Shown: positions 1 through 59,224 of the stretch, in pieces
Numbering within the stretch: position 1 is the first letter of the stretch
How the letters are laid out: each line of letters opens with the position of its first letter
Position numbers and translations under genes: made by a program
Notes under the pieces: generated by a model
Databases searched by the model: none
Seen by the model: only the letters and a program-made list of their open reading frames with translations
Told to the model about the DNA's origin: nothing
IMG/VR virus record: IMGVR_UViG_3300048834_000258
Coordinates: 1 to 64,000 of that record
DNA length: 64,000 bases
Source of the DNA: a virus
Reading direction: 5' to 3' (one strand)

Positions 1-2325
1 GTCGCAAACGGCAGTAACAAAGTCTACGGCACTGGAACCAACTTCCTCGCAGTATTCGGCGCGGGGCGTGCAGGCCCGCCGATCAAGACGACAGATTCCG
101 CCAATGCCCAGATTGCGATTCGAAACGTCTCGACGGGGTATCCCTATTTCGTTTACAGGACAATCACGAACGTAGACTCCGACACCGAATTGACGATCAG
201 CGCGACGTGGCAGCAGACCACCATCAGCTCGCCTGGTGTTGCGTGGGGGTCCTGGACCATTGGGCAGGTGCGCAAGGGCACAGGGACGGTCTACGTGGCC
301 AACGGCAGCACGACGGTCACAGGCACGGGCGGGACCGATCTACAGGCGGAGATCTGCGACGGCGGCACCACGCCGGATGGCGGGACCACGATCTATTTTG
401 TCGAGGCGGGAGCGGTGACGCGGAAGTCGGTTGCCTCCTGTCAGAGCGCCACGCAGATCACCCTTGCGGCGGCGTACGACGGCACGACGATCAGCAGCCC
501 TGGGGTGCCCTACACCTTTGACGATTGGGATCTGGCCAAGGGGGCATGGAGCCCCAATGGCGCGTCGACGGTGAACTTCTACGACATCGCCAAGGCCATG
601 TATCGCTTCTGGTATGCAAGCGGCTGGACGCGCCCCCGAGATGCGGCGCGGTTCCTGGCAGATCGCTACTGGAAACAGACGGCGAACGGCGGGCAGTATA
701 TGTGGGAGTCCTTCGCAGGCTCCGTGATTCGACAGGTAGTTGATCCGCCAGAGTCGCCTGACTCGGATTTCTGGATTGTCAGCGAAAACCGCATGTCGGA
801 TGTGTGGGACGTGCGGAAGTATGTCGGCCACAGTCCCATGTATGAGGCGCGGGAGGTTGCCTACGCCCTGGAGGTTGCCGTAAGGACTGCCCGCTACGAC
901 CCCGACGCCACGCGGCGAGCAACCAATCTAGCGCGGGTGCAAGACTCTTACGATGACCTGTGGAGTACGGACATGGTGGCGGCGTCCAGCGGGGGCTTCT
1001 ACCGCAACCACATCAAAGAACCGGATTCGGCGCGGGTGCTGGCGGTGACCAATGGCTCAGCGACGGTCACCAAGCACAGCGGGACGGATTTCGCTGCGGA
1101 CTTTTGCGGCGATCCTGCGAGCTTCTACAGCACGGGCACGCTGGCGCTGACGAATGGGAGCACGACAATTTCGCTAACTGGGGGCGACCTGACCTTGCAC
1201 GCCGGCAAAAGGATCTTCATTCGGGGCACGCTGGCTGGCCAGCCATACTCGCAGGTCAATCAGATCACCAACGCCACAACGCTCAAATACCCGTGGCCGG
1301 GGACAACGGGCAACGCGACTGCGTGGCGAGCACAGACTCGCGTGGAGTGGTACCCAGGCGACTACTACGCCCTGGAGATGCTGCAAGTCGATTCATCCGG
1401 CGCGGCGATTGGCCCGAAAGCGTGGGGAAGCACCAATGCGGCACTGCCGGAGACTGACGCCTGGTACTGGTGTACCCGAGACAGCGGCACGCAGCTCACG
1501 CTGGATAGGCCATTCACCGGGGACACAGGCGGCACCGGATATCGCAGGGTGATGTTCCACGGCGGCTCCTACGTCCAGCCGTACTTCCAGATGCTTCTCG
1601 CCCGTTCGTTCCAGATGGCTGCAAGGTTGCTGGATGACGAAGGGGACACGGTGCGGGCGGCGGGGTATCGGAGCCTTGCGTCCGATCTGGTGGACTACGT
1701 GACGGAGGTGGCGGCAGACGGCTACAGCTATGGAGTGCCGTACTTCACGGAAACACCCGTCTGCGAACCGGTTTCCAGCAAACCAAACATCTGCGATGAG
1801 GCAGCGGATTCCGACTACCACCGGGCCTACTCGGTGGAGGCGAACGGCCCGCTTGCGCAAGACTACCTGGACGCTCCGACGCCAGAAAAGCTGACGCGAA
1901 TGAATGCCTGGTTCAACGCGCAATTCTGCCCGTCTGCTGGATACGATTGCCCGTTTGCATCCGACGGCAGCACGGCGGAACTGGTGCAGGACGGCATTCC
2001 TGAGTTCAGCGACACGCTCCGCACGAAGAACTTCGGGCAAGCGTTTGGCGTAGGCGGCGGCTACATGGTGGATGCGGCGCGGGTGGGGGGGCAGGCGGCG
2101 GTCGAGAATCGCACGCTAACGGTCCAGGTGGCATCACCACTGGCGTATGGCGATCGCATCAAGATTACGGCAGTCAATGCAAGCGGTGTGGCTGTGACCA
2201 ATACCTGCGAGGCCGTGACGTGCAGCGTCACCAGCGACTTCCGCGCGGGCGGGCAGGTGGTGAAGATCCAGTACTACCTGGATGATGTCCCGGTAACACC
2301 GGAAGGGTTTTTGATTGTCAATTAG
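1..2325 (+). CDS. 5'-truncated large virion-associated / tail-fibre-like protein
   Basis: Frame is open from base 1 (VANGSNKVYGTGTNF...). Four copies of a VxNGSxxVxxxGTxF/L...QLTL beta-module alternate with aromatic-rich helical segments; G/T-rich. Confidence 0.6.
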   Translation, partial: VANGSNKVYGTGTNFLAVFGAGRAGPPIKTTDSANAQIAIRNVSTGYPYFVYRTITNVDSDTELTISATWQQTTISSPGVAWGSWTIGQVRKGTGTVYVANGSTTVTGTGGTDLQAEICDGGTTPDGGTTIYFVEAGAVTRKSVASCQSATQITLAAAYDGTTISSPGVPYTFDDWDLAKGAWSPNGASTVNFYDIAKAMYRFWYASGWTRPRDAARFLADRYWKQTANGGQYMWESFAGSVIRQVVDPPESPDSDFWIVSENRMSDVWDVRKYVGHSPMYEAREVAYALEVAVRTARYDPDATRRATNLARVQDSYDDLWSTDMVAASSGGFYRNHIKEPDSARVLAVTNGSATVTKHSGTDFAADFCGDPASFYSTGTLALTNGSTTISLTGGDLTLHAGKRIFIRGTLAGQPYSQVNQITNATTLKYPWPGTTGNATAWRAQTRVEWYPGDYYALEMLQVDSSGAAIGPKAWGSTNAALPETDAWYWCTRDSGTQLTLDRPFTGDTGGTGYRRVMFHGGSYVQPYFQMLLARSFQMAARLLDDEGDTVRAAGYRSLASDLVDYVTEVAADGYSYGVPYFTETPVCEPVSSKPNICDEAADSDYHRAYSVEANGPLAQDYLDAPTPEKLTRMNAWFNAQFCPSAGYDCPFASDGSTAELVQDGIPEFSDTLRTKNFGQAFGVGGGYMVDAARVGGQAAVENRTLTVQVASPLAYGDRIKITAVNASGVAVTNTCEAVTCSVTSDFRAGGQVVKIQYYLDDVPVTPEGFLIVN

Positions 2326-2333
2326 GAGACCTT

Positions 2334-2774
2334 ATGACGGTCAAAGTGGCGGAGATTGTTTGGAAGCACTTGCGTAAGAAGGCTCGCGAGGCGTTTCCGA
2401 ATGAGATGTTGGGCTATCTGTTTGGGCATATAGAAGGGGATGTGATATATGTTCAAACAGTTTATATCGCCGAGGGCGATGATATTGTGCAGGCTTCGCC
2501 GGAAGCCATCTCCGTGAGTGCTGGGTCCAAAGCAGCGGCGGAATACATTGCGGGAATAATGAAGATGAAGCTGTTGGGTACGGTTCATACGCACCCGGAA
2601 GCGGAGCCTGAAGAGTATACCTGCGATGCGGTTCCGTCGCTTTTTGATTATGAGTATGGATGGGAGGAGCACGTAATGGGCATATTGCACATTTGCCGGA
2701 AGGGCAAGCGGTGGCAGTATGATCTGAGATTTTACGATCCGAAGGGGCTGTATGTCACTGAATTTGTACGTTAA
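2334..2774 (+). CDS. JAB/MPN+ (JAMM) family metalloprotease
   Basis: N-terminal Glu (PNEMLG), HTHP and PSLFD give the E...HxH...SxxD JAMM motif; GGAG SD. Confidence 0.85.
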   Translation: MTVKVAEIVWKHLRKKAREAFPNEMLGYLFGHIEGDVIYVQTVYIAEGDDIVQASPEAISVSAGSKAAAEYIAGIMKMKLLGTVHTHPEAEPEEYTCDAVPSLFDYEYGWEEHVMGILHICRKGKRWQYDLRFYDPKGLYVTEFVR

Positions 2775-5757
2775 GGACCCACGCGAGTCGCGCACCAAAC
2801 AGGTGGCCGAGGAGCGCGAGGCGATCATGAAGATTGCCAAAGCGCGTTGGTTGGCGCGGACTAATATGTACTACCTGTGTAATAAGGTGCTTGGGTACAA
2901 AGATGTGAACCCTGCGGTCCATTATGGGTTGATTCGTACTTTGCAGCAGTTTCCGATGCCTGCGGAAAATGAGTGGTTCAAGTATGATAAGCCGATGGTT
3001 CGCGCCGATGGGTCGGTGGTTTGGGACTATACACCTGTTATTCCGAATATGCTCGATTTGCCGGGAGGCCGTAGACGCCTTATTCTGGATAGTCGCGGTA
3101 CGCTCAAGTGCCACTGCGATTCGAACTGGATGCGTAAAGCCTCGGGCGAGTATGTGCAGACGAAAGACATCGAAGTTGGAGATGTGCTCGACGGTATCGA
3201 TGAGAATTTCCGATTTACTCCTGTAGTTATTGAGCGAAAAGAACTTCAAGGAGAGCAGGAGTGCTATCGAATTACTACCAGAACCGGACGAGTTTTGGAG
3301 GTTTCCCACAACCATCCACTTAGAATGGTGGATAAGTGGATTGAGGCGGAAAAGCTGAAGCCGAAAGATCGAATTGCTATTCACGGAAGGTTGCCAGAGC
3401 CGGAGGGGGCACAGGATGTTGCCTACGACGAGATACTTGGTTGGTTTCTAGGCGACGGCAATATCAGCGGCAGTACTGTTACGCAGAAAAGGGATCGTTT
3501 TGTCCAATGGATTATAGAGGCCGCACAAAAAGCAGGTTTCACGGCAGATGCAATAGAGTACGACCCTGTAAAGAGGCCGGGGATTAAGACGGTTCGGGTG
3601 CAGGGAGCGCGGGATCTATTTCGGGAGTTAGGGTATTTGAAGAAGGATTGGTATGCGAAATCGGCAGACAAGTTTGTCCCCGAGACGATCTTTCGGGCCA
3701 GCAATGCTAGCGTAGGTCGCTTTTTGGCGACACTGTTTGCGGCAGATGGTACTTTCGGAACTGGGTCTATTAGCTATTGCTCTATCTCGAAGAGGCTGTG
3801 CCAAGACATCCAAAGGTTGTTGTTGCGTTTTGGTATTCATAGCCGTGTTTCTACGATTTTGACGAAATACAAAGGAGAGCCTTACACTTGCTATCATCTG
3901 CACGTTCAAGGGATGGAGAACATTTTGCAGTTTGTGGCGAGTATCGGATGGTACAAAGAGTGCCGTTTTAAGTGGCCGAAAGGAAAGGCAAATCCCAACG
4001 TCAACACAGTGCCGAAGCAATGGCGCAAACTGTTTCCGAAGTACTTCTTTGCACGAGGGGAGCGCCCCGATGATTTGCCCAAACTGTGGAACAAGAAACA
4101 GAATCGCTTCATTCCGAAGAGTCTTTCGTCCTACAACGTAGACAAAAAGTATCTTAAGGCAATTTGCCAATATCGTCCAGATGCTTTGATGGAGGGGTTG
4201 GCGTCCGATGATGTATTTTGGGACGAAGTAGTCTCGGTGGAATCTATTGGCAAACAGAGGACGTGGGCTATCCAGACGAACAAACGAAACTACTCTATTT
4301 CGGATGTAGTTACCCATAATACTTCCATTAACATTATGGCGCATTCGGTGCAGTGGATACTGAATTATCCCGACATCGCGATTCTGTTGGTACACGCAAA
4401 AGCCGAGATTGCTGAGGATATCTTGGGCGAGGTTCGTGACATGTTTGCGTTCTGTGAACCACTGCGGCACTTGTTTCCCGAGTTGTGCCCGGAAGCAGAT
4501 CAGATCAAGCACTTTGGAAATAGGAGTCGATTTACTATCCCAGGTAGATCGAAGATTCGCAAAGAGCCGACCATGGATACGACCTCTATTACGTCGGCCA
4601 TCGCCGGAGCGCACTTCGACGTTATCAAGTTTACGGACTGCGTGGAAGAACAGAACGCGGCCAACAAAGAGATGCGCAATGACGTGAGCAAGAAGTTCTC
4701 ACTGTTCCGTAACGTGCTCTCGACGCCGATGCACTGGATTGACGTGGAGGGCACTCGCTATCACTTTGATGACCAGTACGGGCGTATCATTGACGGCGAG
4801 AAGACGCTTCCCTTGGAGCATCGGGTGTGGGGCATCTATGTTAGAGGGTGTTATAAGAAAAAGCTGCCCTCCGGGCAGAAAGATTATCAGTTTTCGCCCG
4901 AGGAGTTGGAACTGCCGGACCTGTTGGACGAGAACGGGAAGAAAGTGAGTTGGTGGCCGGAGCGGTTTCCCACATGGTTCCTGGAGCGAGAAGAGAACGA
5001 CCCTACGGGCGAGATCTTCGACTTCAATTCGCAGCGCCGCAACCATCCGGTGGGTGATAGTAAGACGCTGGATTTCCCCGCCAGCGTGATCCAGTGGATT
5101 CCCGAGAAGGAACTTCGTTCAATTCGAGCGGAGTATTTTGTGACGACGGTGGACACGGCGGAGACGCAGAACGCACAGAGCAACTTCTCGGTAATTACAA
5201 CGTGTATGTGGGATTGTAACAATCGGTGCTATGTGATGGACGTGCGCCGCGCGAAAATGAAGCCCGATGAATTAGTGTCCCAGTTGTTTGATGTGTATGC
5301 AAAATGGCGTCCCATTGTGGTGCGGATCGAGGAAACCTCATACACACGAGGGTTGCAGTTTGGTTTGCGCCGCGAAATGGATTTGAAGCAGTTTTCCATT
5401 CCGTTTGACTTCGTGAAGCCGGACAACCAGAAGAGCAAGCAGGAGCGTATTCGTCTGACGTTGCAGCCGGTCTTGCGGCGGGGCGATTTACGCTTCTCGG
5501 AGGGTTTGCCTTCTGACATGAAAGATGCTATCTATCAGGAGTTCACGCAATTCCCCAAGGGAATTTCGGACGACATCCTGGACACGCTGGCGGACCAGTT
5601 TCAGAACAAGTCGTTCTATGGGAGGATTCGTGAGAGAGAGACTTTCGAAACCATGTCACAGAAAGCATTTAATGCTCTCGTACAGGGGTTGGAAAATCCT
5701 TTTGCGGACCCAGCTACTCCGCCCGAGAGTTACTACTCGCGGACAGGCGGGCTTTAG
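2752..5757 (+). CDS. terL: Terminase large subunit containing an intein (about 597 aa after splicing)
   Basis: Walker A SRGTLK|T split by the intein; GAHFDVIKFTD (Walker B region), GTRYHFDD, nuclease motifs TTVDTA and DDILDTLA. Confidence 0.92.
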   Translation: MSLNLYVKDPRESRTKQVAEEREAIMKIAKARWLARTNMYYLCNKVLGYKDVNPAVHYGLIRTLQQFPMPAENEWFKYDKPMVRADGSVVWDYTPVIPNMLDLPGGRRRLILDSRGTLKCHCDSNWMRKASGEYVQTKDIEVGDVLDGIDENFRFTPVVIERKELQGEQECYRITTRTGRVLEVSHNHPLRMVDKWIEAEKLKPKDRIAIHGRLPEPEGAQDVAYDEILGWFLGDGNISGSTVTQKRDRFVQWIIEAAQKAGFTADAIEYDPVKRPGIKTVRVQGARDLFRELGYLKKDWYAKSADKFVPETIFRASNASVGRFLATLFAADGTFGTGSISYCSISKRLCQDIQRLLLRFGIHSRVSTILTKYKGEPYTCYHLHVQGMENILQFVASIGWYKECRFKWPKGKANPNVNTVPKQWRKLFPKYFFARGERPDDLPKLWNKKQNRFIPKSLSSYNVDKKYLKAICQYRPDALMEGLASDDVFWDEVVSVESIGKQRTWAIQTNKRNYSISDVVTHNTSINIMAHSVQWILNYPDIAILLVHAKAEIAEDILGEVRDMFAFCEPLRHLFPELCPEADQIKHFGNRSRFTIPGRSKIRKEPTMDTTSITSAIAGAHFDVIKFTDCVEEQNAANKEMRNDVSKKFSLFRNVLSTPMHWIDVEGTRYHFDDQYGRIIDGEKTLPLEHRVWGIYVRGCYKKKLPSGQKDYQFSPEELELPDLLDENGKKVSWWPERFPTWFLEREENDPTGEIFDFNSQRRNHPVGDSKTLDFPASVIQWIPEKELRSIRAEYFVTTVDTAETQNAQSNFSVITTCMWDCNNRCYVMDVRRAKMKPDELVSQLFDVYAKWRPIVVRIEETSYTRGLQFGLRREMDLKQFSIPFDFVKPDNQKSKQERIRLTLQPVLRRGDLRFSEGLPSDMKDAIYQEFTQFPKGISDDILDTLADQFQNKSFYGRIRERETFETMSQKAFNALVQGLENPFADPATPPESYYSRTGGL
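3109..4320 (+). mobile_element. Intein with LAGLIDADG homing endonuclease (404 aa)
   Basis: Starts at Cys (CHCDSNW), block B SHNHP, LAGLIDADG-like ILGWFLGDG and FLATLFAADG, ends VVTHN followed by Thr+1. Confidence 0.93.
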
Positions 5758-6824
5758 GTAGCCGCCTGCCGCTTTTCCTGCGAGAATGCCAGCTTGTCGC
5801 CATCGGCGCTGATGTGGATGGTGATGCCCGCCGTAATCTTGCCGCTAGTTTTGAGGACCGCCAGCGGTTGCCACAATAGGTGAGTGATGGCCCGCTTCAA
5901 AGGTCGTGCTCCGTACTTAGCTTCGAAGCCCACTTTAACGAAGAGGTCTTTTGCCGAGTCTTCGAAGTGCAGGGCGCACGAATTGAAGCCCCACCGAGTA
6001 ACGAGCCAGTCGTCGGCTTTGGCCAGTTCAATCTCTACAATGTGGCGCAGCGTCTCTTTTGAGAGTTCTTCATAGTAGAGGAACTCGTCAATGCGGTTGA
6101 TGAACTCCGGCGAGAACTTGCGCTTGAGCCGCTGTTCGACCATGGTGGTCAGGGAGGCGGCTGTGGTTGTGGCGGTGAAGCCGGGGGAGTTCCGTATTTG
6201 GCCAATCTCGGCATAGCCGATGTTGGACGTTAGGAACACCAGCGTGTTCTCGAAGTCGACCGGATTGTTGTCGCCGGTGCGAAGGAAGCCCTTGTCGAGA
6301 ATGCCGAGGAGGATGCGCTGCATCGAAGGCGCGGCCTTCTCAATCTCATCGAACAGTACGACGGAAATTCGACTATGCTCACTGGAAATCGACTCCAGCC
6401 GCTGTTGGGAAAGCACGGCCTGCGTTTCCTTATGGCCCAGATATCCGGGAGGTGCGCCTACCAGTTTGGCCACTTCATGCTCCATCTGGTACTCTCCGCA
6501 GTCCACGCGGAGCAAATGGCGGTCGCTGTTGTGTAGGAGTTCAGCCACGGCTTCGACGGTTCTAGTCTTGCCAGTACCAGTGGGGCCGAGAAGCATGAAA
6601 ACGCCAGCGGGTCTTCCGGGAGGGTTAAGGTTGGCGTCCACCATATCCAGGTAGGGAGTGATTTTGGAAATGCACTCCTGACCGATGATACGCTCGCGTA
6701 ATCGTACCAAGTACGGGAGTTCGGCTTCTCGCGCTCGCCGCGAGTCGGCCATTGGGATGTGCATTCGAGTTCCGTTTACAGGCATTTTGGTTTCTCCTCC
6801 CTTGGATCTTACTCGTAAAGCCAT
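5754..6824 (-). CDS. Single-domain ClpA/B/C D2-type AAA+ ATPase
   Basis: GPTGTGKT, pore loop APPGYLG, Walker B LFDEIEKA, FLTSN, PEFINRID, YGARPLKR. No N-domain, D1 or M-domain. Confidence 0.9.
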   Translation of the reverse strand: MALRVRSKGGETKMPVNGTRMHIPMADSRRAREAELPYLVRLRERIIGQECISKITPYLDMVDANLNPPGRPAGVFMLLGPTGTGKTRTVEAVAELLHNSDRHLLRVDCGEYQMEHEVAKLVGAPPGYLGHKETQAVLSQQRLESISSEHSRISVVLFDEIEKAAPSMQRILLGILDKGFLRTGDNNPVDFENTLVFLTSNIGYAEIGQIRNSPGFTATTTAASLTTMVEQRLKRKFSPEFINRIDEFLYYEELSKETLRHIVEIELAKADDWLVTRWGFNSCALHFEDSAKDLFVKVGFEAKYGARPLKRAITHLLWQPLAVLKTSGKITAGITIHISADGDKLAFSQEKRQAAT

Positions 6825-6976: not shown

Positions 6977-8911
6977 ATGGCTGAAGAACTTAACGATTCC
7001 CTCGTACTTTCGACTGACCCGACTCCGGGCTACGAAGACATCACGAAGCAGCTTGCGCTGTCTCGGGTGGTGCAGACGTTCTTCAAGTACGAGACTTGGC
7101 GGCAGCGCAACTACGACCTCAAGTGGCGGCACCTCCAGGAGCTTTATAACGGGGTGGTACCCAGACGGTTCTGGGAAGGCACTACGACCGAGAGAGCTTC
7201 GCTCTCTGTGCGACTCATTCACTCCCAGGTCCAGAGCGTTCTCCCTCTTCTGCACCAAGCATTGTTTGGGTCTGACATTGAGTGGTTCAAAGTTGCCGCC
7301 ATTGGCGAGACTTCTACGCAGGAAGCAGCGGAGGTGCAAGCGCGGCTACTGTACCTGTGCGAGCACCCAACGGATCGGTTTGGGAACAATGTGCGTAACC
7401 AAGTTACGCTTACTCTCAATGATTTGCTTGTCAAAGGTATCGCCATTCTTGCTTTGCAAGTAGATCCGCTTACGCTGGAGCCTGTAGCCAATCGTATCTC
7501 GCCGCTGGACTTCTATGTCGATCCCGCTTGCGGGCCGGACATTGAACAGGCGAAATCGGTTATTTGGCGGCGCACGCTGACGCTGGATCAGGTAGAGGCA
7601 CTGCGAGGGGCCGAAGGCTTTGATATCCCCGACAGGGGGACGCTCATGGAGTGTATTCAGAGTATGCCGTCGGCTATTGCAGATACGTCCCGGCAGATGG
7701 AAGAAAGTTCGCGGGGTGTTCAGTACAATCCGCTGTCCGACGGGCAGGGTGTGTTTGGCGCGGAGAGCAATCTTGAGGTATTAGTGTACTACACCAAGAC
7801 ACGGGTTGTTTGGGTGCTTAACAGACACTACGTTATTTACAATGGCGAGAATCCGTATGGGTTCTACCCGTTTACGGCGGCGACCTGCTTCTTCGACCCG
7901 GATCGGTTCTACGGGAATGGCTATTCCGATGTACTGGCCGATTTGCAGAAGTACATGCAGTCGATTCGTAATGCGCGACTGGACGAGCTTTCGCTGGCCT
8001 TGAATCCGCCGCGAGTGACCCGCGCTTCGCACGATCAGCGCATGACGTTTTCGCAGAGAGTGTGGCGACCGGGTGCTCAGTTGGCGACCGAGAATGGCAA
8101 GGACGATATTTCGGTCCAGGTGCCGTCGAATATTACACAGAATTCATATCAAGAAGAGAGTTGGATGCAACAGCAGGCCCAGGAGATGACCGGGGTGAAC
8201 TCCATGGTCCTCCAGGGTATGCCGATGCGGGGCAATGCTTCTGCGAGTGCAACTTCGGTAGGAGCGCAGCGCGAGGCTCCGTCGTTGCGGCTGCTGATGG
8301 TGGTTCTCTCTTTGGAGAATTATCTGTTGACGCCGATGTTGTATAAGATGTTGAAGATGCACCAGATTCATAATCAGGGCGATCTTCAGTTGAGAGGTAT
8401 GACGGCGGAAGGACAGACGCCTGTTGCGAATCAAAGTTTGCAGCGCGATGTGAAGTTCATGATGTTGTCTGCAACGCGGATGATGTCACGCGAGAAGCTG
8501 TTGCAGGTGTTCCCGTTCCTGACGCAGTATTTGCTCAATCCTGAGTTGATGGGGCACTTGCAACGGATCGGACTGGCGGTTGATATGGCGGAATGGGTCC
8601 GTATGTTGCAGGACGCCAGCGGCACGAAGCAAGTGTATCAGTTGGTGCGGCCTCTCAATGAACAGGAACAGCAGGCGCTCATGCAGCCGACGCCTGAGAT
8701 GATGCAGGATCAGCAGAAGACGAAGGCATCGAACGAAGTTCGCCTCGCGATGGCGGATAAGAAGAATCAGGCCGAGCAGATGAAGGTCCAGGGCAAACTG
8801 CAAGAGGTCGATAAAAAGACCGAGGCGGACATGAAGAAAGAGATGCTGTTGGCGGTTATGCAGCGAGTGATGGGCGGCGGCAACGCCGAAGGCGGCAACA
8901 GTGGCTCTTAG
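6977..8911 (+). CDS. Portal protein
   Basis: Follows TerL; ISPLDFYVDP, YPF...DPDRFYGNG, QEMTGVN and a Q-rich C-terminal barrel as in P22-like portals. Start reassigned to the ATG after the promoter. Confidence 0.85.
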   Translation: MAEELNDSLVLSTDPTPGYEDITKQLALSRVVQTFFKYETWRQRNYDLKWRHLQELYNGVVPRRFWEGTTTERASLSVRLIHSQVQSVLPLLHQALFGSDIEWFKVAAIGETSTQEAAEVQARLLYLCEHPTDRFGNNVRNQVTLTLNDLLVKGIAILALQVDPLTLEPVANRISPLDFYVDPACGPDIEQAKSVIWRRTLTLDQVEALRGAEGFDIPDRGTLMECIQSMPSAIADTSRQMEESSRGVQYNPLSDGQGVFGAESNLEVLVYYTKTRVVWVLNRHYVIYNGENPYGFYPFTAATCFFDPDRFYGNGYSDVLADLQKYMQSIRNARLDELSLALNPPRVTRASHDQRMTFSQRVWRPGAQLATENGKDDISVQVPSNITQNSYQEESWMQQQAQEMTGVNSMVLQGMPMRGNASASATSVGAQREAPSLRLLMVVLSLENYLLTPMLYKMLKMHQIHNQGDLQLRGMTAEGQTPVANQSLQRDVKFMMLSATRMMSREKLLQVFPFLTQYLLNPELMGHLQRIGLAVDMAEWVRMLQDASGTKQVYQLVRPLNEQEQQALMQPTPEMMQDQQKTKASNEVRLAMADKKNQAEQMKVQGKLQEVDKKTEADMKKEMLLAVMQRVMGGGNAEGGNSGS

Positions 8912-11313: not shown

Positions 11314-11940
11314 ATGGCAAGTGAACAAAAAGCGGAACTGACTGGTACCATCACGTATGTCGATGGCACTCTTTTTAATGGGTGGATGCTAGTCGGTTTG
11401 GTTCCTCCGCTGCGCGGGTCAACTGCCTATACGAGTTTCTACAAAATCTACGCACAGCAGCGCACGAAGCTGCCCCAGTGGATTACGTTTCAAGTCCGGA
11501 ACGGAGAGTTACAGGCTCCTGCGAAGCTTCGCTTCAACACCTCCATTTCACCGCCGAATACGAAGTATGTTTCGTTTTTTGTTGACTACGAGGGGAACAC
11601 GCTAGCGACCGGGAGCCTGTTCACGGTGACTGCTACTCCACACGCGATTGTGGAACCCTCTTTCTCGATTCCGACTGCGGGCACCACTGCCCCGACACCA
11701 TGCCAGGGGGTTTCCGTGAGCGCACTTTCCACACCTATCCGCGAGACGCCTACCGGCACCATTGATGGGGTCAACGACACGTTCACCCTCTCCGTCATCC
11801 CACCTTCCTTCGTGATCGTCATTCTAGGCGGTACCATTCAGGAAGAGGGAACCTCTTACACGATTTCCGGGAACACGATCACCTTCGAGGCTGCTTACAT
11901 CCCGAGCAGCGGAAGTATTATCGAAGCGATCATTTTCTAA
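11314..11940 (+). CDS. Virion accessory protein with C-terminal beta module; apparently leaderless
   Basis: ETPTGTIDGVNDTFTL...YTISGNTITF module common in fibre proteins; TAAAAT lies 6 nt before the ATG. Confidence 0.6.
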   Translation: MASEQKAELTGTITYVDGTLFNGWMLVGLVPPLRGSTAYTSFYKIYAQQRTKLPQWITFQVRNGELQAPAKLRFNTSISPPNTKYVSFFVDYEGNTLATGSLFTVTATPHAIVEPSFSIPTAGTTAPTPCQGVSVSALSTPIRETPTGTIDGVNDTFTLSVIPPSFVIVILGGTIQEEGTSYTISGNTITFEAAYIPSSGSIIEAIIF

Positions 11941-21163: not shown

Positions 21164-23578
21164 ATGGCTGAATACCAAGCTCCGACTTTAGATAAAATTC
21201 TAGGTGGTGTGGGCACTGGCGTCGGGCTTGGGACGATGGCCACAACCGCTATGGGGAGTGCTGCGGCCTCCGGGCTGATGGGCGCAACGATGGCGGGGTT
21301 GCTTAGCAACCCGTTTACGGCGGTGGGAGCAGCCCTGCTGCCACTGGCAGCGAAGATGTTTGGTCCGGGGTCCGATGGACCGAAGATGGTGGGGGCAACC
21401 AACTTGGTTGAACCCTACGACAAGCTGCTTACGCAAAGGCGTGATGACTTCCTGAAGAATAGTGCGAATGCTACGCCGGAACAGAAATTACGGTTTGCGG
21501 CGGAACAAGAAGCTATTATTCAGGATATGTTCTCGAAATTCGAGAAATATAAGGATCAGTTAGGGGATATCGGGGCGCGTAGTATTGCTGAACGGCAGGC
21601 GGGCGGCAAGCATGACTTCTACAAATACTATGTGACTCCTATTACTGGTGGCGGGCGAGCCGCAGATTTCGCGCAGGCGAACGGGTTGCAGATGCCGCAA
21701 ATCAGCGGCGTAGGCACCCCCGGAGGGGGAGGTCTCAACCTCACCCAGCGAGTAATGGGTGCTCCCGGAGGGAGCGCGGGTACGGGAATAGGCGGTGCCG
21801 CAGGCACCCCGATTTTGAATTTGGGAGGCGGCTCTGCCGCTAATTGGGCTTTACCAGCAGCGGCGGGAGGTGCGACGATGTTCAGCGGTATTGGTTCGTG
21901 GCTCGGAAATCTTTTCGGAAACCAGGGTTTCCAGCAAGCAATGGGCGCTCTTGCGCCCGCAATTACCGGCATTCTCGGCGGTCTGGGTCAGCGGTCTTCT
22001 AACGATTCGGCTAACGAGACTCTCCAGGGCGCAATCGCAGACCTCCTCGGACGCGGCGATGAGTTTGCCAATTTGTCCGCAGAACAACAGGCACAGGTGG
22101 TCCAAGCTGTTCAGCAGATGCTCGGAGCGGGCGGGGCCACCCCGCAGTTCTCCGCTTTGCAGAGTGATATCGCTCGCACTGGCAGTTCGATGCCCGCGCT
22201 GTTCGGCCAGAACCTTGCGGACCCGCAGGCTATCAACATGCTGCTTCAGAGCATCGCTGATCCTCGGGCGCAAAGCGCCATGACACAGGGGGCTAACATG
22301 GTCGCCTCTGGCGGAATGACTCCTGAACTGGCTCAGTTGTTCCAGACAGCACAGGCGCTCCAGACGGGCAGTTCTGGCCAACAGATGCAGCTTCAATCGT
22401 TGGCAAACGAACTAACCCAAAACGGCGGTACTACGCCCTTCCTCCAAACGCTTATGGGCGCGGGGGCTAGTGCCCTCGGCACTAGAGGGATGACGCCGGA
22501 GATCCAGCAGGCACTCGGCCCGTTTATGTCGCTCTTGCAGAGCGGCGGTAAGAATGCCGAAAATACCGCGCTGTTTGGGCGCGGCATGGACCTCTTCAAC
22601 CGGGAAGCCTTGCTTCCTATGTCGAAGGTTATTGGCATCGCTGGTGACCAAGCGGGTAGAGCCGTCCTCGATCAGTATGAGCAGGTACGGCGCGAAGCGC
22701 AGCAGCGTGGCGGTGGCCCTGGAGCCGTGGTTGGCTCGGGGAGTGCCAACGATGCGCGGGCCGAGTTTGGAGACCGGGCAGCAGCAGCTATTGCGAAGGC
22801 ACAGCAAGACGCAATGATGGGCCAGCAGGGGCTGCAACTGCAACAGCAGGCGACTGGTGCCGGAGCCGCAGGCCAAGGGGCTTCACTGATGGCGCAGCTT
22901 CTCGGAATGGGCCAGAGCGGCGTATCCAACCTTCTGAGCACAGCCGCAGGGCGCGAAGGCACTCTGGGCCAGTTGGGAGCCGCAGGTCAGCAGCAGGCCA
23001 ATGCCCGGACGGGCATGGGTGGAGATTTCCTCAACACCATCATGCAAATTGCCCTGGGCGGCGGACAGTTGGGAGCCTCTGCTGCGGGACAGCAGACGGG
23101 GCGCATTAACGCTGGTGGTAACATTGTGCAAGGCATGGGCCAATTGCAGCAGAGCGGCCTCGATTCGATTGTGAAGAATCTGCTGCAAGGTTCGCAGTTG
23201 GGGATCCAGCAGGGAACAGCTTTGGGCAATTTGCTCAATACAAACCAGGAGCTTCTGTCTCGGAACGAGATTGGACGGATGTCCAATATCAATTCGCTGC
23301 TTTCGTTGCTAACACAAATGAGCGGGCAGAATTTGAGTACAGCGAGTGGGCTGTATCAGGGTTCGACAGGACTACAAACACCGCTGGCAACTGGACAGCG
23401 AAACTCGCCTATTAGTGATGCGCTAACGGCTCTTGGACCTGGACTAGCTCAGTGGTTCGGTAATCGGATGTCTATTCCTACTGCGAGTACGCCGGGAATT
23501 GTACCCACTCCCAATGCAACGGTAGCGCCCTATGTGACATCACTACCTAAACTTCCGGGATTTAATCCGACTTCGTAG
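21164..23578 (+). CDS. Internal virion / DNA ejection protein
   Basis: 804 aa, extremely G/A/Q/L-rich, after the tail genes; own TGG-TAAAAT promoter. Confidence 0.65.
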   Translation: MAEYQAPTLDKILGGVGTGVGLGTMATTAMGSAAASGLMGATMAGLLSNPFTAVGAALLPLAAKMFGPGSDGPKMVGATNLVEPYDKLLTQRRDDFLKNSANATPEQKLRFAAEQEAIIQDMFSKFEKYKDQLGDIGARSIAERQAGGKHDFYKYYVTPITGGGRAADFAQANGLQMPQISGVGTPGGGGLNLTQRVMGAPGGSAGTGIGGAAGTPILNLGGGSAANWALPAAAGGATMFSGIGSWLGNLFGNQGFQQAMGALAPAITGILGGLGQRSSNDSANETLQGAIADLLGRGDEFANLSAEQQAQVVQAVQQMLGAGGATPQFSALQSDIARTGSSMPALFGQNLADPQAINMLLQSIADPRAQSAMTQGANMVASGGMTPELAQLFQTAQALQTGSSGQQMQLQSLANELTQNGGTTPFLQTLMGAGASALGTRGMTPEIQQALGPFMSLLQSGGKNAENTALFGRGMDLFNREALLPMSKVIGIAGDQAGRAVLDQYEQVRREAQQRGGGPGAVVGSGSANDARAEFGDRAAAAIAKAQQDAMMGQQGLQLQQQATGAGAAGQGASLMAQLLGMGQSGVSNLLSTAAGREGTLGQLGAAGQQQANARTGMGGDFLNTIMQIALGGGQLGASAAGQQTGRINAGGNIVQGMGQLQQSGLDSIVKNLLQGSQLGIQQGTALGNLLNTNQELLSRNEIGRMSNINSLLSLLTQMSGQNLSTASGLYQGSTGLQTPLATGQRNSPISDALTALGPGLAQWFGNRMSIPTASTPGIVPTPNATVAPYVTSLPKLPGFNPTS

Positions 23579-43273: not shown

Positions 43274-44046
43274 TCTCCCCCTTCGCCGGTTGACGGCCGC
43301 CCAGTTGCCGGGGCTTTCGACCGATTGAGCCGATCTATCTCGGCAGCAATCAGTGCCCCCGCTTTGACAAGATTTCGTACCGGATCTGGGTCAGGCTTCC
43401 ACCAGCGCGCCTCCCACGGCCACGGGTGCAGCCACTTGCGAATCCAACCAAATTCTGACTCGACGGTGACCTTCGCCTTTATTGGAAGTTGCGCTGCGTG
43501 AGCGATGTAGGAAATTGCAGCCGCTGCGAGTTCTCCGTACAGATGCTGGTCATCGTGATCGTGGGTCCAGCCTTCTTTTTCAATCTGCCGCCACCGTTCA
43601 GCGATAATTAACTCTGCTCCCGTCATCACCCCCCCCTCCGCCTCGCTGGGCTTCTGTGTCTTCTTGGCGGCCTCCGCGTCCAGGGCGGCGAGTTTGGCTA
43701 GCCATTCCTTCGCCCACCGTGTTAAAATGATGACTTTCCCTTTGTCTTCGTCCACTACCGTGGGGGCTTCCAAAAGTCTGAGCATGACCTCCAGCACCTT
43801 TCGCCGCTCGTCGGCACGGATCCTCTGCTCGTAGGCTTCGGCGGCTTCCGCTGTACCGTTCAGCGCCTTGAGTGCGGCAACGCCCTCATCGCTTTCCAGA
43901 TCAATCGCCAAGCCACCATCCTCGTACCACTTGTCGCTCTCTTCGATCTTGCGGTACAGGTCGGATAAGGCATCTCGCACAACGGCCAGCGCCGCCACCT
44001 GGGCCTCTGCCGCTTCAGCGCGGGCCTTCCAGTCGATGTCACTCAT
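43270..44046 (-). CDS. Modular protein with a C-terminal helical (possibly MazG-like) domain
   Basis: [12 protein letters not shown]...HDDQH..GELA...[15 protein letters not shown]; internal SD plus Met at about 43626. Confidence 0.55.
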
Positions 44047-44537
44047 TGGGGGCCTCCTTTCGGCAGCGCAGCCAGGCGCGCCGCCACGAACTCAATCCAC
44101 GCGCCGTACTCGGCTGTTTCCGCGTCGGTGTAGCCTTCCTTCCGCCCAACCGCCGCGTAATGTTCCCGCCACCACTCGACCGTCTCGGTCATGCAGCCAA
44201 TTGAGATCTTTCCGTCGTGGACAATCGCAGCGTGGCGCGACAGGCCAAAGTGCCATGGAGCGCCTACCGCTGACGCCACAGCCGCATTGTTCCATCGCGC
44301 CCCGCTCAGGTCGGCCCCGCTCAGGTCGGCCCAGCGCAAGTCGGCCTCGCGCAGGTCGGCCCCGCTCAGGTCGGCCCCGCTCAGGTCGGCCCAGCGCAAG
44401 TCGGCCTCGCGCAGGTCGGCCCCGCGCAAGTTAGCCTCACTCAAGTTGGCCCAACTCAGGTTGGCTCCGCTGGCCACCGCGTCCGCTACGCTGGCGTATT
44501 CGCCTATTTCCGTTCCGTCTCGTCTATAGATTTTCAT
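44043..44537 (-). CDS. Pentapeptide repeat protein
   Basis: A(D/N)Lxx repeats; exact 60-nt tandem duplication at about 44299-44425. Confidence 0.85.
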
Positions 44538-44713
44538 TACTCCTCCCTCCCTAGCGCAAATTTGGCCACTTGCGCCATAAACACCGGGTCTCTCTTGGCC
44601 GCGATTCGCTCCAGCGCCGCACGCAGTCGGGCGTTGTCCGCTTCGAGTGCTTCGACACGCTCATGGTATTCGAACAGCATTTCGCTAGTCGCTTTCGTGT
44701 TCATCTCAACCTC

Positions 44714-45340
44714 CTAGTAAACAATGCCTTTGGGCGCGAAGTGCGCGGCTGTTACCAGTGTACCGAGATTGAGCGTGTCAATCAAGGTCACGGAGCCATT
44801 TAGGTCGCGAAGTCGCTCGAAATCCAGGCGAAGCCTGACCTGCTGATAGGGGCCGACGATAGTTTCAGAACGAAACACCTCAACGCCATTGCGTTCGCGG
44901 TAGATCGCCGCTACGCTGACTGGCGTTTCGCCAGTGTTCACGAACACAATCTCCGTGTCCGCGTTCAGTTCGAACCACGGAAGGGTCCGCTTCGCGCTCG
45001 GCTTCTGCGTGCGCAGAACGCCTTTGTCCGTTAGGACAAAGATGCGTGGAGAGCCAAAGGGCGATACGTTGACAGCCCAGTAGGTGCCCGGTTCAGCGAA
45101 CGTGAAGCACGCGATTGCTTGCGGGACGAGTCCGCCCAAGAGGGCGGCTTGCCGTCCAAAGGCTTTGAAAGAAGGTTGTGTCGGGGAGCCGAGAGGCTCC
45201 CGGAACTGGATGTTGTAGCCGACAGTTTCATCGGAATCATTGAGGATGCAGAGTTGCGTGCCAGGAGTCGCGTCAACGACGGGGAGCACCTGGGCGCTAA
45301 GCGCAAAACAAAGTGTCAAAAGTGTGAATGTGAGTTTCAT
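44714..45340 (-). CDS. Secreted protein with two beta-sandwich-like repeats
   Basis: Signal peptide MKLTFTLLTLCFALSA|Q; repeats TQLCILND and TEIVFVNTG. Confidence 0.6.
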   Translation of the reverse strand: MKLTFTLLTLCFALSAQVLPVVDATPGTQLCILNDSDETVGYNIQFREPLGSPTQPSFKAFGRQAALLGGLVPQAIACFTFAEPGTYWAVNVSPFGSPRIFVLTDKGVLRTQKPSAKRTLPWFELNADTEIVFVNTGETPVSVAAIYRERNGVEVFRSETIVGPYQQVRLRLDFERLRDLNGSVTLIDTLNLGTLVTAAHFAPKGIVY

Positions 45341-57986: not shown

Positions 57987-58006
57987 AGTTAGTTAGCGCC
58001 GAAGGC

Positions 58007-58513
58007 TTACAGGCCCGCGAAGTCGCCGTAGGCGCGGCTGTCAGCGCCCGCCTGGGGAGCGCACCACAGGACGACGAAGGCACCAGCGCCCTCGGTTTCC
58101 GGCGTGGTCCGCGTCACGTCGAAGTCCGCAGTCAACACGGAACCCGCCGCAATCGTGGTTTTGGTCGCGTCCAGGACGGGCGGGGTAACGCCGGTGCTGG
58201 CAGCATTCGCGTAGACAAAGCCCGCGCCCGCAGCCTTGGTGATGGTGCAGGTGGTGGTAAGAATGGAAGTGCCGGAAGTCGCGGCGTCAGCCCGCTTGTC
58301 CACGTCGATAACGACCTGCCAAGCATCGGTGCCGTCAACACCGTTGGTTACGATGCCCGCATTGATGCCGACAACTTCCACATCAAAGGGGAAGATGCCG
58401 CCAGGGACGCCGAGCACGTCAGCGGACAAAGTGCCCGACTGCATAATCACGGGAAAGAGCAGCGCCGTTCCGGGCGCAGCCGCGTTAGAGAGAAGCAAAA
58501 CACCATTAGCCAT
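58007..58513 (-). CDS. Probable capsid decoration / minor virion protein, solo transcription unit
   Basis: A/T/G/V-rich jelly-roll-like sequence (PFDVEV...VDK...SILT...TIAAG.VLT.D); own promoter GTGC-GAA-GCAC-ATGG-TAGAAT; AGGAGG SD. Confidence 0.55.
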   Translation of the reverse strand: MANGVLLLSNAAAPGTALLFPVIMQSGTLSADVLGVPGGIFPFDVEVVGINAGIVTNGVDGTDAWQVVIDVDKRADAATSGTSILTTTCTITKAAGAGFVYANAASTGVTPPVLDATKTTIAAGSVLTADFDVTRTTPETEGAGAFVVLWCAPQAGADSRAYGDFAGL

Positions 58514-58609
58514 AGTTTGGCCTCCTAGCTAGAAGTATAAGGATGCGCAATCCTACTATTATTCTACCATGTGCTTCGCACGCCATTAACTTTCCATAGT
58601 GGAAGGGTA

Positions 58610-58638
58610 TTGACAGCGGGCCAGAGGCCCGCTATACT
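58610..58638 (+). promoter_or_regulatory. Near-consensus sigma70 promoter with a palindromic spacer
   Basis: TTGACA-GCGGGCC-AGA-GGCCCGC-TATACT (17 bp spacer). Confidence 0.85.
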
Positions 58639-58861
58639 GAGATTGTCGCTCGGCGCAACCTCCCCGGTTGTCGTTAGTGGCAGGCCCGAGCTGGGCGGGG
58701 CGCGACGAAACCCGGCAAAGATTCGCCAACAGCCTCGGCTTAACGCTTGCAAGGTTGGCGAAGTCGCAGGTCTGGCGAATGTCACCGTAGGGTGGCCAGT
58801 AACCAGCGCATGTGGCCCCGAGTGTGGCGACGAATCGGGGCAATTTTCGAGGAGGTAAATC

Positions 58862-59224
58862 ATGAGTGTTTTTGGTGGATGGATCGGCGTGGACCTGGAT
58901 GGCACACTCGCTGAATATGACGGATGGAAGGGGCCGGAACACATCGGCAAGCCCGTCCCGGCGATGGCCTTCCGCGTCAAGAAGTGGCTGGCTGAAGGAA
59001 AGGACGTGCGGATCTTCACGGCACGAGTGTCGCATGACGGGTCTCCCGCTCGCGTGGCCGATGCAGCAGATGCTTCTGACGCCATTTCTAGTTGGTGCAA
59101 AGAGAACTTCGGCCAACGACTTCCGATTACAAACCAGAAAGACTACGCCATGGTGGAACTGTGGGACGACCGCTGCGTGCAGGTTGAACCCAACACCGGC
59201 AGAAGGGTGGATGGGAAGTCATGA
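58862..59224 (+). CDS. HAD-superfamily phosphatase (PNK phosphatase-like)
   Basis: IGVDLDGTL, IFTAR, K, WDDR. Confidence 0.8.
   Translation: MSVFGGWIGVDLDGTLAEYDGWKGPEHIGKPVPAMAFRVKKWLAEGKDVRIFTARVSHDGSPARVADAADASDAISSWCKENFGQRLPITNQKDYAMVELWDDRCVQVEPNTGRRVDGKS

Follow-up and report, generated by a model that had tools for sequence, protein, structure and literature searches.

The Bil system conjugates a protein of the ubiquitin-like type (Ubl) to the central tail fibre of phages (Hor et al., 10.1101/2023.09.04.556158), and the role of its JAMM peptidase BilC itself is left unstudied in the available sections of that preprint. Cap3, which belongs to type II CBASS (antiphage signalling based on cyclic oligonucleotides), is an isopeptidase reversing cGAS conjugation (Jenson et al., 2023, PMC10097602), and the accessible part of this article presents it solely as a host isopeptidase. 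A precedent on the side of the phages is provided by lambda and T1, for which the available text (PMC1779556) places JAB domains with tail and host-specificity genes.

Here we report on a stretch of viral DNA of 64,000 bases (the window), which represents bases 1–64000 of the 73,567-base IMG/VR record IMGVR_UViG_3300048834_000258, classed as linear with a CheckV completeness of 100%, and on a stand-alone gene of the JAMM/Prok-JAB metallopeptidase family at positions 2334–2774 of its plus strand, situated between a tail-fibre-like gene and terL, the gene of the large terminase subunit. As judged from sequence and fold prediction, its product is apparently a JAMM/MPN+ zinc peptidase of minimal size and capable of catalysis, and the gene is fixed in a small group of related soil phages that are uncultured and podovirus-like. 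An original prediction, made from the letters of the window, had described it as an intact JAMM protease and proposed that it protects virion assembly from Ubl-based bacterial defence.

The JAMM gene, its product and its relatives

The reading frame starts with ATG and encodes 146 amino acids (16.7 kDa, pI 5.5). A Shine-Dalgarno sequence, AGGAG (2324–2328, plus strand), is located 5 nucleotides (nt) 5′ of this start and overlaps the stop codon of the upstream fibre-like gene (TAG at 2323–2325), the gap between stop and ATG being 8 nt. Each of the five residues for catalysis and zinc binding is in place, and the E/HxH/SxxD motif of the original prediction was thereby borne out for a stand-alone domain: Glu24, the catalytic general base (codon 2403–2405, plus strand), is followed by a zinc-binding/catalytic block H85-x-H87-x14-S102-x-x-D105 (2586–2648, plus strand), with H85-T-H87 encoded at 2586–2594 and S102-L-F-D105 at 2637–2648. 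The spacer from HxH to SxxD comprises 14 residues; it is 7 in the classical JAMM motif, and the length of this loop differs among family members. Pfam assigns the protein to Prok-JAB (PF14464) with E=2.5e-8 and 34.2 bits at a cut-off of 25 (33.3 bits in a six-frame search). At E≤0.1 the same scan returns Prok-JAB and JAB only, without a match to the RadC family, and no PHROG family is matched at E≤0.01, the small-terminase family included.

An exhaustive phmmer search of 1.84 billion representatives returned 49 proteins at E≤1e-3 and led to a 48-sequence alignment. In this alignment P22, E24, G31, G82, H85, H87 and S102 are invariant (E24 in 48/48 homologues) and D105 is conserved in at least 90%; the motif is not a product of chance, because its residues are conserved across 48 homologues. 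AlphaFold2, supplied with the homologue alignment, predicts an MPN fold with a predicted local distance difference test score (pLDDT) of 95.3 and a predicted template-modelling score (pTM) of 0.89. Comparison of this model with the PDB by Foldseek yielded 218 matches at E≤0.001; all those listed are JAMM/MPN proteins, and the first of them are 2kks, CSN5, Rpn11, BRCC36 and a ubiquitin-bound archaeal Rpn11 homologue (template-modelling score, TM, up to 0.76). Peptidase activity is accordingly a predicted property of the protein.

The last 23 nt of the gene (2752–2774, plus strand) overlap the start of terL, just as first described, and the overlap is retained in two related contigs, L003 (5642–5664) and L004 (8419–8441); the downstream gene is confirmed as a terminase by its match to phrog_38. 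The junction TAGGAGAC(C/T)TT(A/G)TG before the JAMM gene is likewise kept in L003 and L004, and ribosome-binding site and overlap persist at a nucleotide identity of 78.5%. The order fibre-like gene, JAMM, terL, AAA+ ATPase (minus strand) and portal is found in all three contigs that show the region (window, L003 and L004), and the JAMM, TerL and AAA+ proteins of the window are 70–100% identical to those of L003 and L004. Compared with L003, the JAMM gene displays 10 nucleotide differences and a 100% identical protein, and its ratio of nonsynonymous to synonymous substitution rates (dN/dS) relative to L004 is 0.114, next to 0.115 for the neighbouring AAA+ gene. The JAMM gene is under strong purifying selection. 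The guanine-plus-cytosine (GC) content is 49.9% for JAMM, 51.8–52.3% for the terL exteins and 62.2% for the body of the fibre-like gene. Promoter- and terminator-like sites around the JAMM gene are at or below shuffled expectation, which lends no support to a promoter or terminator of its own. Overlap and junction suggest that translation of JAMM is coupled to that of terL. Because its position is fixed and coupled and its composition core-like, JAMM is probably a resident late gene co-transcribed with its neighbours.

Further relatives of this arrangement are few. A terL-based scan added only L008 and two distant loci, and since the L008 contig begins within terL, the JAMM region is outside its visible part. 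Scans of viral contigs with P0003, P0005, P0054 and P0056, of metagenome contigs with alignment A3 and P0054, and of genome contigs with A3 returned no additional relatives. Among 50,697 phage records searched by tblastn, the sole match is gp271 of Tunturi 5 (31–32% identity, E 2e-14), a stand-alone JAB protein (L001 6001–6486; Pfam 1.5e-9, family profile 9.4e-35) encoded among DNA-metabolism genes. Tunturi 3 carries another stand-alone member, gp141 (L012 7775–8221; Pfam JAB 1.1e-8, family profile 3.4e-19), located 2.4 kb upstream of terL and seven genes away from it. Both gp141 and gp271 are deposited as ‘minor tail protein’, a label that probably originates from gpK-type annotation transfer. 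No JAB was seen in the fetched flanks of the more distant terL relatives L009 and L010 (0/2). The viral fold neighbours include stand-alone JABs of Gordonia phage Yikes, Mycobacterium phage Patience and Brevibacterium phage Cantare. In the literature searched, none of the stand-alone phage JABs, which occur here and there in many phage genomes and go by names such as ‘minor tail protein’, ‘protease’ and ‘metalloprotease’, has a known substrate.

A profile search of a collection of 5.8 billion proteins produced 53 proteins at E≤1e-8, nearly all of them metagenomic and one from a Bryobacteraceae metagenome-assembled genome (MAG). A cluster look-up of ten homologues led to metagenomic entries throughout, the only names being ‘proteasome lid subunit RPN8/RPN11’. 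Searched against proteins of 330–2000 residues, the family profile revealed no fused members at E≤1e-5, which is weak evidence. Four genome loci with family members were recovered, all from Acidobacteriota MAGs. At the Bryobacteraceae locus (L013) the JAB is 26% identical and is the last gene of a prophage-like string, in which it follows a 1368-residue Phage-tail_3/host-specificity protein, a 1034-residue tail protein and a 383-residue helix-turn-helix (HTH) protein; the remaining three loci yielded no informative neighbours. A C-terminal domain of 65 residues (42% identical) is common to the window open reading frame (ORF) 11314–11940 and L013 11879–12745. This domain has matches to PHROG tail-fibre family 18673 and, weakly, to CBM_X2, and the window ORF follows the capsid gene.

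In a sample of 301 Acidobacteriota genomes the family profile finds members in 5 at E≤1e-25, one of these being the seed genome. The other four stand in chromosomal contexts: one has a ThiS-ThiF-rhodanese fusion as its neighbour, and metabolic or envelope genes are found close to the others. In the former case (L023 8008–10078, minus strand) the cellular JAB adjoins the 482-residue fusion in a compact module of sulfur-carrier type. Three Acidobacteriota genomes (L029, L030 and L032, from G169, G240 and G154) contain sub-threshold Cap3-like JAB domains in frames of ~800 residues, and these frames may be JAB fusions of Ubl-conjugation-type operons.

A maximum-likelihood tree was computed from 106 rows and 149 columns (P0001, P0021, P0051–P0058 and P0105 were left out, and BilC is not among the rows). 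The window protein, L004, P0002 and P0003 (with P0004) form a branch of their own, with a support of 85 in the Shimodaira–Hasegawa-like approximate likelihood ratio test (SH-aLRT). The backbone is unresolved, with 14/101 branches strongly supported and with lambda K and the Cap3-like acidobacterial row on very long branches. In this phylogeny, of a kind that had been suggested as a check, the clade is not joined to Cap3-like, lambda K or Mec-type proteins; all that the tree indicates is that the window clade stands apart as an orphan lineage.

Possible functions of the JAMM peptidase

We tentatively rank a late, morphogenesis-linked peptidase first among the possible functions of JAMM, with a counter-defence deconjugase as its close rival. 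JAMM would share its transcript with the last tail-fibre-like gene and be coupled to terL in translation, and would for that reason be made when and where virion morphogenesis occurs. Its target would be a late protein of the phage itself, in which it would cleave a peptide or isopeptide bond; it would thereby correspond in function to the JAB half of gpK of lambda (a neighbour of host-specificity gene J), but act without NlpC/P60 and without a recognisable Ubl partner. Late co-expression appears plausible from the arrangement of the genes; the proposal that a phage protein is the substrate is the weakest link of all. The reading is ranked first because the position of the gene is fixed, coupled and compositionally ‘core’, and because an association with tail or host-specificity genes recurs. 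The Bryobacteraceae JAB closes a prophage-like tail string, at a locus that has a 65-residue domain of tail-fibre type in common with the window, the C-terminal domain of the neighbouring fibre-like protein is conserved together with the JAMM gene, and the precedent of lambda and T1 points in the same direction.

Several observations weigh against such a function. Searches of the whole 73.6-kb record with PF06805, PF02597, PF00240, PF00899 and PF00877, covering Ubl, Ubl-activating (E1) and NlpC/P60 families, gave 0 matches at E≤1. The C-terminal domain of the adjacent fibre-like protein is modelled as an all-beta sandwich and not as a beta-grasp, and the head module, which has a separate scaffold-like protein, would seem to have no obvious need of a protease. 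The differing position of the JAB in Tunturi 3 and Tunturi 5 and its absence from the fetched L009 and L010 flanks would fit an accessory gene as well, and accessory genes are also classically found in a context like that in L013, at the end of a tail cluster and behind an HTH gene. Moreover, known JAMM enzymes nearly all act on ubiquitin-like tails, and the Foldseek neighbours of JAMM are enzymes of exactly this kind. Ten small late ORFs showed no relevant Pfam match.

The original prediction had favoured a late deconjugase directed against Ubl-based defence; an apparently active JAMM in a late same-strand gene string stands, and evidence for a specific relation to defence JABs did not emerge. 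Such an enzyme would strip host Ubl tags from virion proteins or from a host signalling enzyme, the tags being attached by a Bil-like, a type II CBASS Cap2-like, a Bub-like or an undescribed system, and deconjugation would rescue assembly or silence the alarm. We regard this as possible, and as somewhat less probable than the first reading. Active site and fold are intact, and as the phage showed no Ubl, E1 or NlpC/P60 of its own, a host-made tag would be a natural substrate; the conjugation of a Ubl to the tail fibre by Bil and the reversal of cGAS conjugation by Cap3 are also in its favour. From one related phage to the next the JAB is placed differently and in a patchy manner, few cellular genomes contain the family (5/301 Acidobacteriota including the seed, the other four members in ordinary chromosomal contexts), and JAB domains in frames of ~800 residues do occur in the presumed host phylum. 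On the other hand, there is no specific kinship to defence JABs, the Cap3 equivalog, TIGR02256, PADLOC models and the BilC and Cap3 structures all giving weak matches, and the tree provides no link to the Cap3-like protein. No Cap3 exceeds its cut-off in the 301 sampled Acidobacteriota genomes, an acidobacterial host of the phage is itself deduced, and Bil was demonstrated on long-tailed phages only, according to the part of the preprint available. Our literature search found no report in which a JAB of a phage counters Bil or CBASS, or serves as counter-defence. Fixed position, conserved terL overlap, core-like GC content and selection are also atypical of anti-defence genes, and resemble a resident late gene more than a mobile one. 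The more specific idea of a viral ‘deubiquitinase’ acting against bacterial immunity, made with the virion proteins, removing tags from the fibre, other assembly proteins or the signalling enzyme of the host, and derived from JABs of a lineage to which neither Cap3 nor BilC is related, appears slightly less probable still.

The overlap with terL may alternatively indicate a packaging accessory. JAMM occupies the usual slot of the small terminase, directly upstream of terL, and might act with TerL, e.g. by trimming or regulating it (TerL has a conserved ...SRTGGL end), or serve as a non-canonical partner. The 23-nt overlap is kept in 3/3 contigs, all three share the TerL end YYSRTGGL, and no small terminase was recognised among the scanned ORFs, i.e. 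16 distinct small or mid-sized ORFs and the scanned late genes. However, small terminases of novel phages frequently escape detection, so that the failure to find one is weak evidence; the model of JAMM displays a complete catalytic MPN domain instead of a small-terminase fold, the protein is acidic (pI 5.5), and the JAB of Tunturi 3 is seven genes away from terL. A predicted complex of TerL (without intein, using the L003/L004 alignment) and JAMM scored 0.00 relative to a mark of 0.32, which speaks neither for nor against binding. We consider a role in packaging unlikely. A partnership with the AAA+ ATPase, in which the two would unfold and process or deconjugate host or phage proteins in analogy to Rpn11 on its AAA+ ring, appears less likely again. 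JAMM and AAA+ genes lie on either side of terL and are jointly conserved in 3/3 contigs, with dN/dS values of 0.114 and 0.115, and Rpn11 and its ubiquitin-bound archaeal homologue are among those structural neighbours of JAMM that are best characterised; but their joint conservation is weak evidence, as the three contigs are closely related, and the two genes are on opposite strands and hence do not form one operon. To our knowledge, no JAMM/AAA+ pair of this kind is known from bacteria or phages. Least probable of all is an inactive, structural or binding MPN module comparable to the MPN− subunits Rpn8 and CSN6. Inactive MPN domains are common in eukaryotic complexes, and CSN6 and Rpn8 are among the weak matches of the family profile, but JAMM possesses the full set of five catalytic and zinc-binding residues, conserved also in its family, which makes such a role very improbable.

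The locus represents a clean case: the enzyme is intact, strongly selected, and fixed between a gene of receptor-binding type and terL. The cultured relatives Tunturi 3 and Tunturi 5, which grow on Tunturiibacter, carry family members, and the choice between an assembly protease and an antagonist of Ubl-based immunity is therefore testable at the bench. Either answer would tell what a class of genes recurring in phages does. If a counter-defence function were true, it would suggest that Acidobacteriota have undescribed defences based on Ubls and that these are countered.

Neighbouring genes and the phage

The gene upstream of JAMM (1–2325, plus strand) is tail-fibre-like or receptor-binding-like; 774 residues of its product are seen, its 5′ end being cut by the contig start, and its full-length counterparts in L003 and L004 comprise 1070 and 1087 residues. 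The original prediction of a fibre-like gene directly before JAMM holds as far as a real and adjoining gene is concerned; its fibre identity is weakly indicated by local PHROG matches (tail fibre, 5.5e-5), by size, by a PKD-like Pfam match below cut-off in a 1168-residue paralogue (19.7 versus 27 bits), and by the pattern of variation. The protein is 41% identical to its orthologue in L003 and 35% to that in L004, the flanking genes being far more conserved, and 72% identical to the paralogue, which is encoded at 66610–70116 of the record (L005 2811–6317). Window bases 1–2092 are 80% identical to record positions 67768–69865. Since bases 1–100 recur exactly within the paralogue, the contig was probably broken at this repeat, despite the CheckV completeness of 100%.

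The end of the fibre-like protein is formed by a conserved C-terminal domain (2107–2322, plus strand), predicted by AlphaFold2 and by comparison to be all-beta (FN3/Ig-like). Its last ~75 residues are 94–100% identical to L003, and a block of 61 residues is 85% identical to L004 (22–46% in the rest of the protein); third codon positions in this block are 56% identical, which indicates constraint at the protein level. The AlphaFold2 model of ~72 residues is all beta without a helix (pLDDT 74–84), and Foldseek returned weak FN3/CBM-like matches, none at E≤0.001. The possibility that this C-terminus is a hidden beta-grasp with a conserved RAGG was rejected, as the model is an all-beta sandwich in which RAGG occupies the turn of a hairpin. 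At 62.2% GC, the fibre body differs from the adjacent JAMM and terL at 50–52%, which suggests that the variable part of the fibre gene was imported by recombination. Patches of ~61–62% GC are located at 1–2070, 22001–23000, 44001–45000 and 58001–59000, the genome as a whole having 55.6%. Five large late proteins start with a leader resembling a Sec signal, i.e. a basic start, 12–14 hydrophobic residues and then F-A/G-G/Q-Q; these are the fibre-like proteins of L003 (2003-) and L004 (4729-), the paralogue (66610-), and proteins of 654 and 533 residues (record 64649- and window 60597-). Such a leader is odd for virion fibres; perhaps its bearers are enzymes or adhesins destined for export, or perhaps it is taken off by another route.

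Downstream of JAMM, terL (2752–5757, plus strand) encodes 1001 residues and is split by an intein (phrog_38 1.6e-47; LAGLIDADG_3, Intein_splicing). The intein of 404 residues, with a LAGLIDADG homing-endonuclease domain, occupies 3109–4320 and splits the P-loop (…SRGTLK | C…HN | TSIN…); its GC content is 48.1%, compared with 51.8–52.3% in the exteins. It is absent from terL of L003 (597 residues) and L004 (598 residues), and no insertion is seen in that part of L008 which could be aligned. Window, L003 and L004 share the same TerL C-terminus, YYSRTGGL. Convergent with terL is the gene of a ClpB-D2-like single-ring AAA+ ATPase of 356 residues (5754–6824, minus strand; AAA_2 1.2e-41, ClpB_D2-small 1e-14, phrog_4871 1.1e-78), 93% identical in L003 and 83% in L004. 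This protein consists of the ClpB/ClpA D2-type module only, its TIGR03346 match covering positions 562–852 of 853.

The head module starts with the portal gene (6977–8911, plus strand; SU10_portal 5.4e-20, phrog_332, phrog_1216) and continues with a 114-residue ORF, a 261-residue scaffold-like protein and a 345-residue capsid protein without an obvious leader. This module gave no reason to invoke a protease, and a role of JAMM as prohead protease is not favoured. A series of large tail-type proteins follows downstream of the head genes, and replication genes are found on the minus strand at ~28–50 kb. Tape-measure, sheath and tube families were not matched in the 20 late and early proteins scanned. 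The nearest records of the phage collection are phages of Tunturiibacter (Acidobacteriota): the identity to Tunturi 3 is 25% for TerL (E 2e-26) and 23% for the portal, and the L004 capsid protein is 30% identical to the Tunturi 3 capsid. The available text on Tunturi 3 describes it as a podovirus (PMC11924767). The podovirus-like layout assumed by the original prediction is reasonable on sequence grounds, because of the SU10-portal match and the distant kinship to this podovirus, and the host is probably a member of the Acidobacteriota, which is a fair deduction from the same comparison and not a finding.

Beyond the window, positions 71574–72575 of the record (L005 7775–8776) encode a ParA/MinD-type ATPase (AAA_31 3.2e-27), and the contig ends with a TPR-like ORF behind it; the ParA/MinD gene could indicate a plasmid-like prophage state or flanking non-phage DNA. 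Short tandem-like direct repeats at window positions 44295–44470, with copies 81–91% identical and offset by ~46–76 nt in a self-BLAST, fall in a high-GC stretch on the early-gene side.

Comparison with named JAB systems

The closest structures are 2kcq (‘Mov34/MPN/PAD-1 family’) and 2kks (DSY2949), uncharacterised bacterial stand-alone MPN proteins of 146–153 residues, determined in structural-genomics work and in size and single domain similar to JAMM. They are the best structures for the family profile (9.6e-20 and 2.2e-15), followed by archaeal Rpn11-like, AMSH-LP and PfJAMM1 proteins, all at ~1e-9, and 2kks is also the best fold match (Foldseek E 5.9e-9, TM 0.70, identity 24%). However, both are cellular proteins of unknown function, and therefore no function can be transferred from them.

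Cap3 of type II CBASS resembles JAMM in that it, too, is a Prok-JAB that is small, stands alone and has this catalytic motif. However, the Cap3 equivalog NF050170 scores 13.3 bits (E=0.074) against a cut-off of 200, TIGR02256 scores 11.7 bits against 127.6, the PADLOC CBASS-JAB models match weakly (best E 5.7e-5, 20.9 bits), and the family profile reaches 3.4e-5 with the Cap3 structure 9ild. A Cap3-type operon was not found either, as the neighbours of JAMM are the fibre-like gene and terL and ThiF/E1 gave 0 matches, CD-NTase (cGAS/DncV-like nucleotidyltransferase) genes not having been searched for separately. In the 301 sampled Acidobacteriota genomes, Cap3 has matches over cut-off in none and sub-threshold matches in 13. 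BilC is likewise a stand-alone JAMM protein of similar size, and the target of Bil is a phage tail-tip fibre protein, according to the available text on that system. BilC is nevertheless part of a host defence operon, whereas JAMM is a phage late gene; the family profile matches the BilC structure 8tyx at E=4.5e-3 (19.8 bits), more weakly than >50 other JAMM chains, and no Bil-type operon was recognised in the record, in which ubiquitin, ThiS and ThiF have 0 matches (E2 families were not searched).

Lambda gpK (TAPK) is a phage JAB in a late morphogenesis operon beside a host-specificity/fibre gene (PMC1779556, in the part available), the layout in lambda being K-I-J. JAMM stands directly after its fibre-like gene, the fibre identity of that neighbour resting on weak matches and the phage being podovirus-like. 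The differences, which uphold the earlier view that JAMM is not of the gpK type, are considerable: gpK has a C-terminal NlpC/P60 domain, whereas JAMM is a single domain of 146 residues in a record with 0 matches to PF00877; lambda has a TAPI-type Ubl beside gpK, whereas no Lambda_tail_I Ubl (PF06805, 0 matches) was found; and the window phage is podovirus-like and not long-tailed, its JAMM gene following a fibre gene and overlapping terL. JABs of Mec+/CysO type belong to the same Pfam family, and the L023 member is matched by the family profile at ~1e-26, but they have ThiS/ThiF neighbours, of which the phage shows 0 matches, and fall into a different clade of the tree. The orphan JABs of the Tunturi phages and actinophages are alike in being stand-alone proteins of ~120–160 residues from tailed phages, those of the actinophages being annotated as ‘metalloprotease/protease’; the Tunturi JABs differ in genomic place, and the window clade is a separate small branch. 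By these sequence comparisons, JAMM is best described as a further orphan phage JAB peptidase, distinct from Cap3, BilC and gpK.

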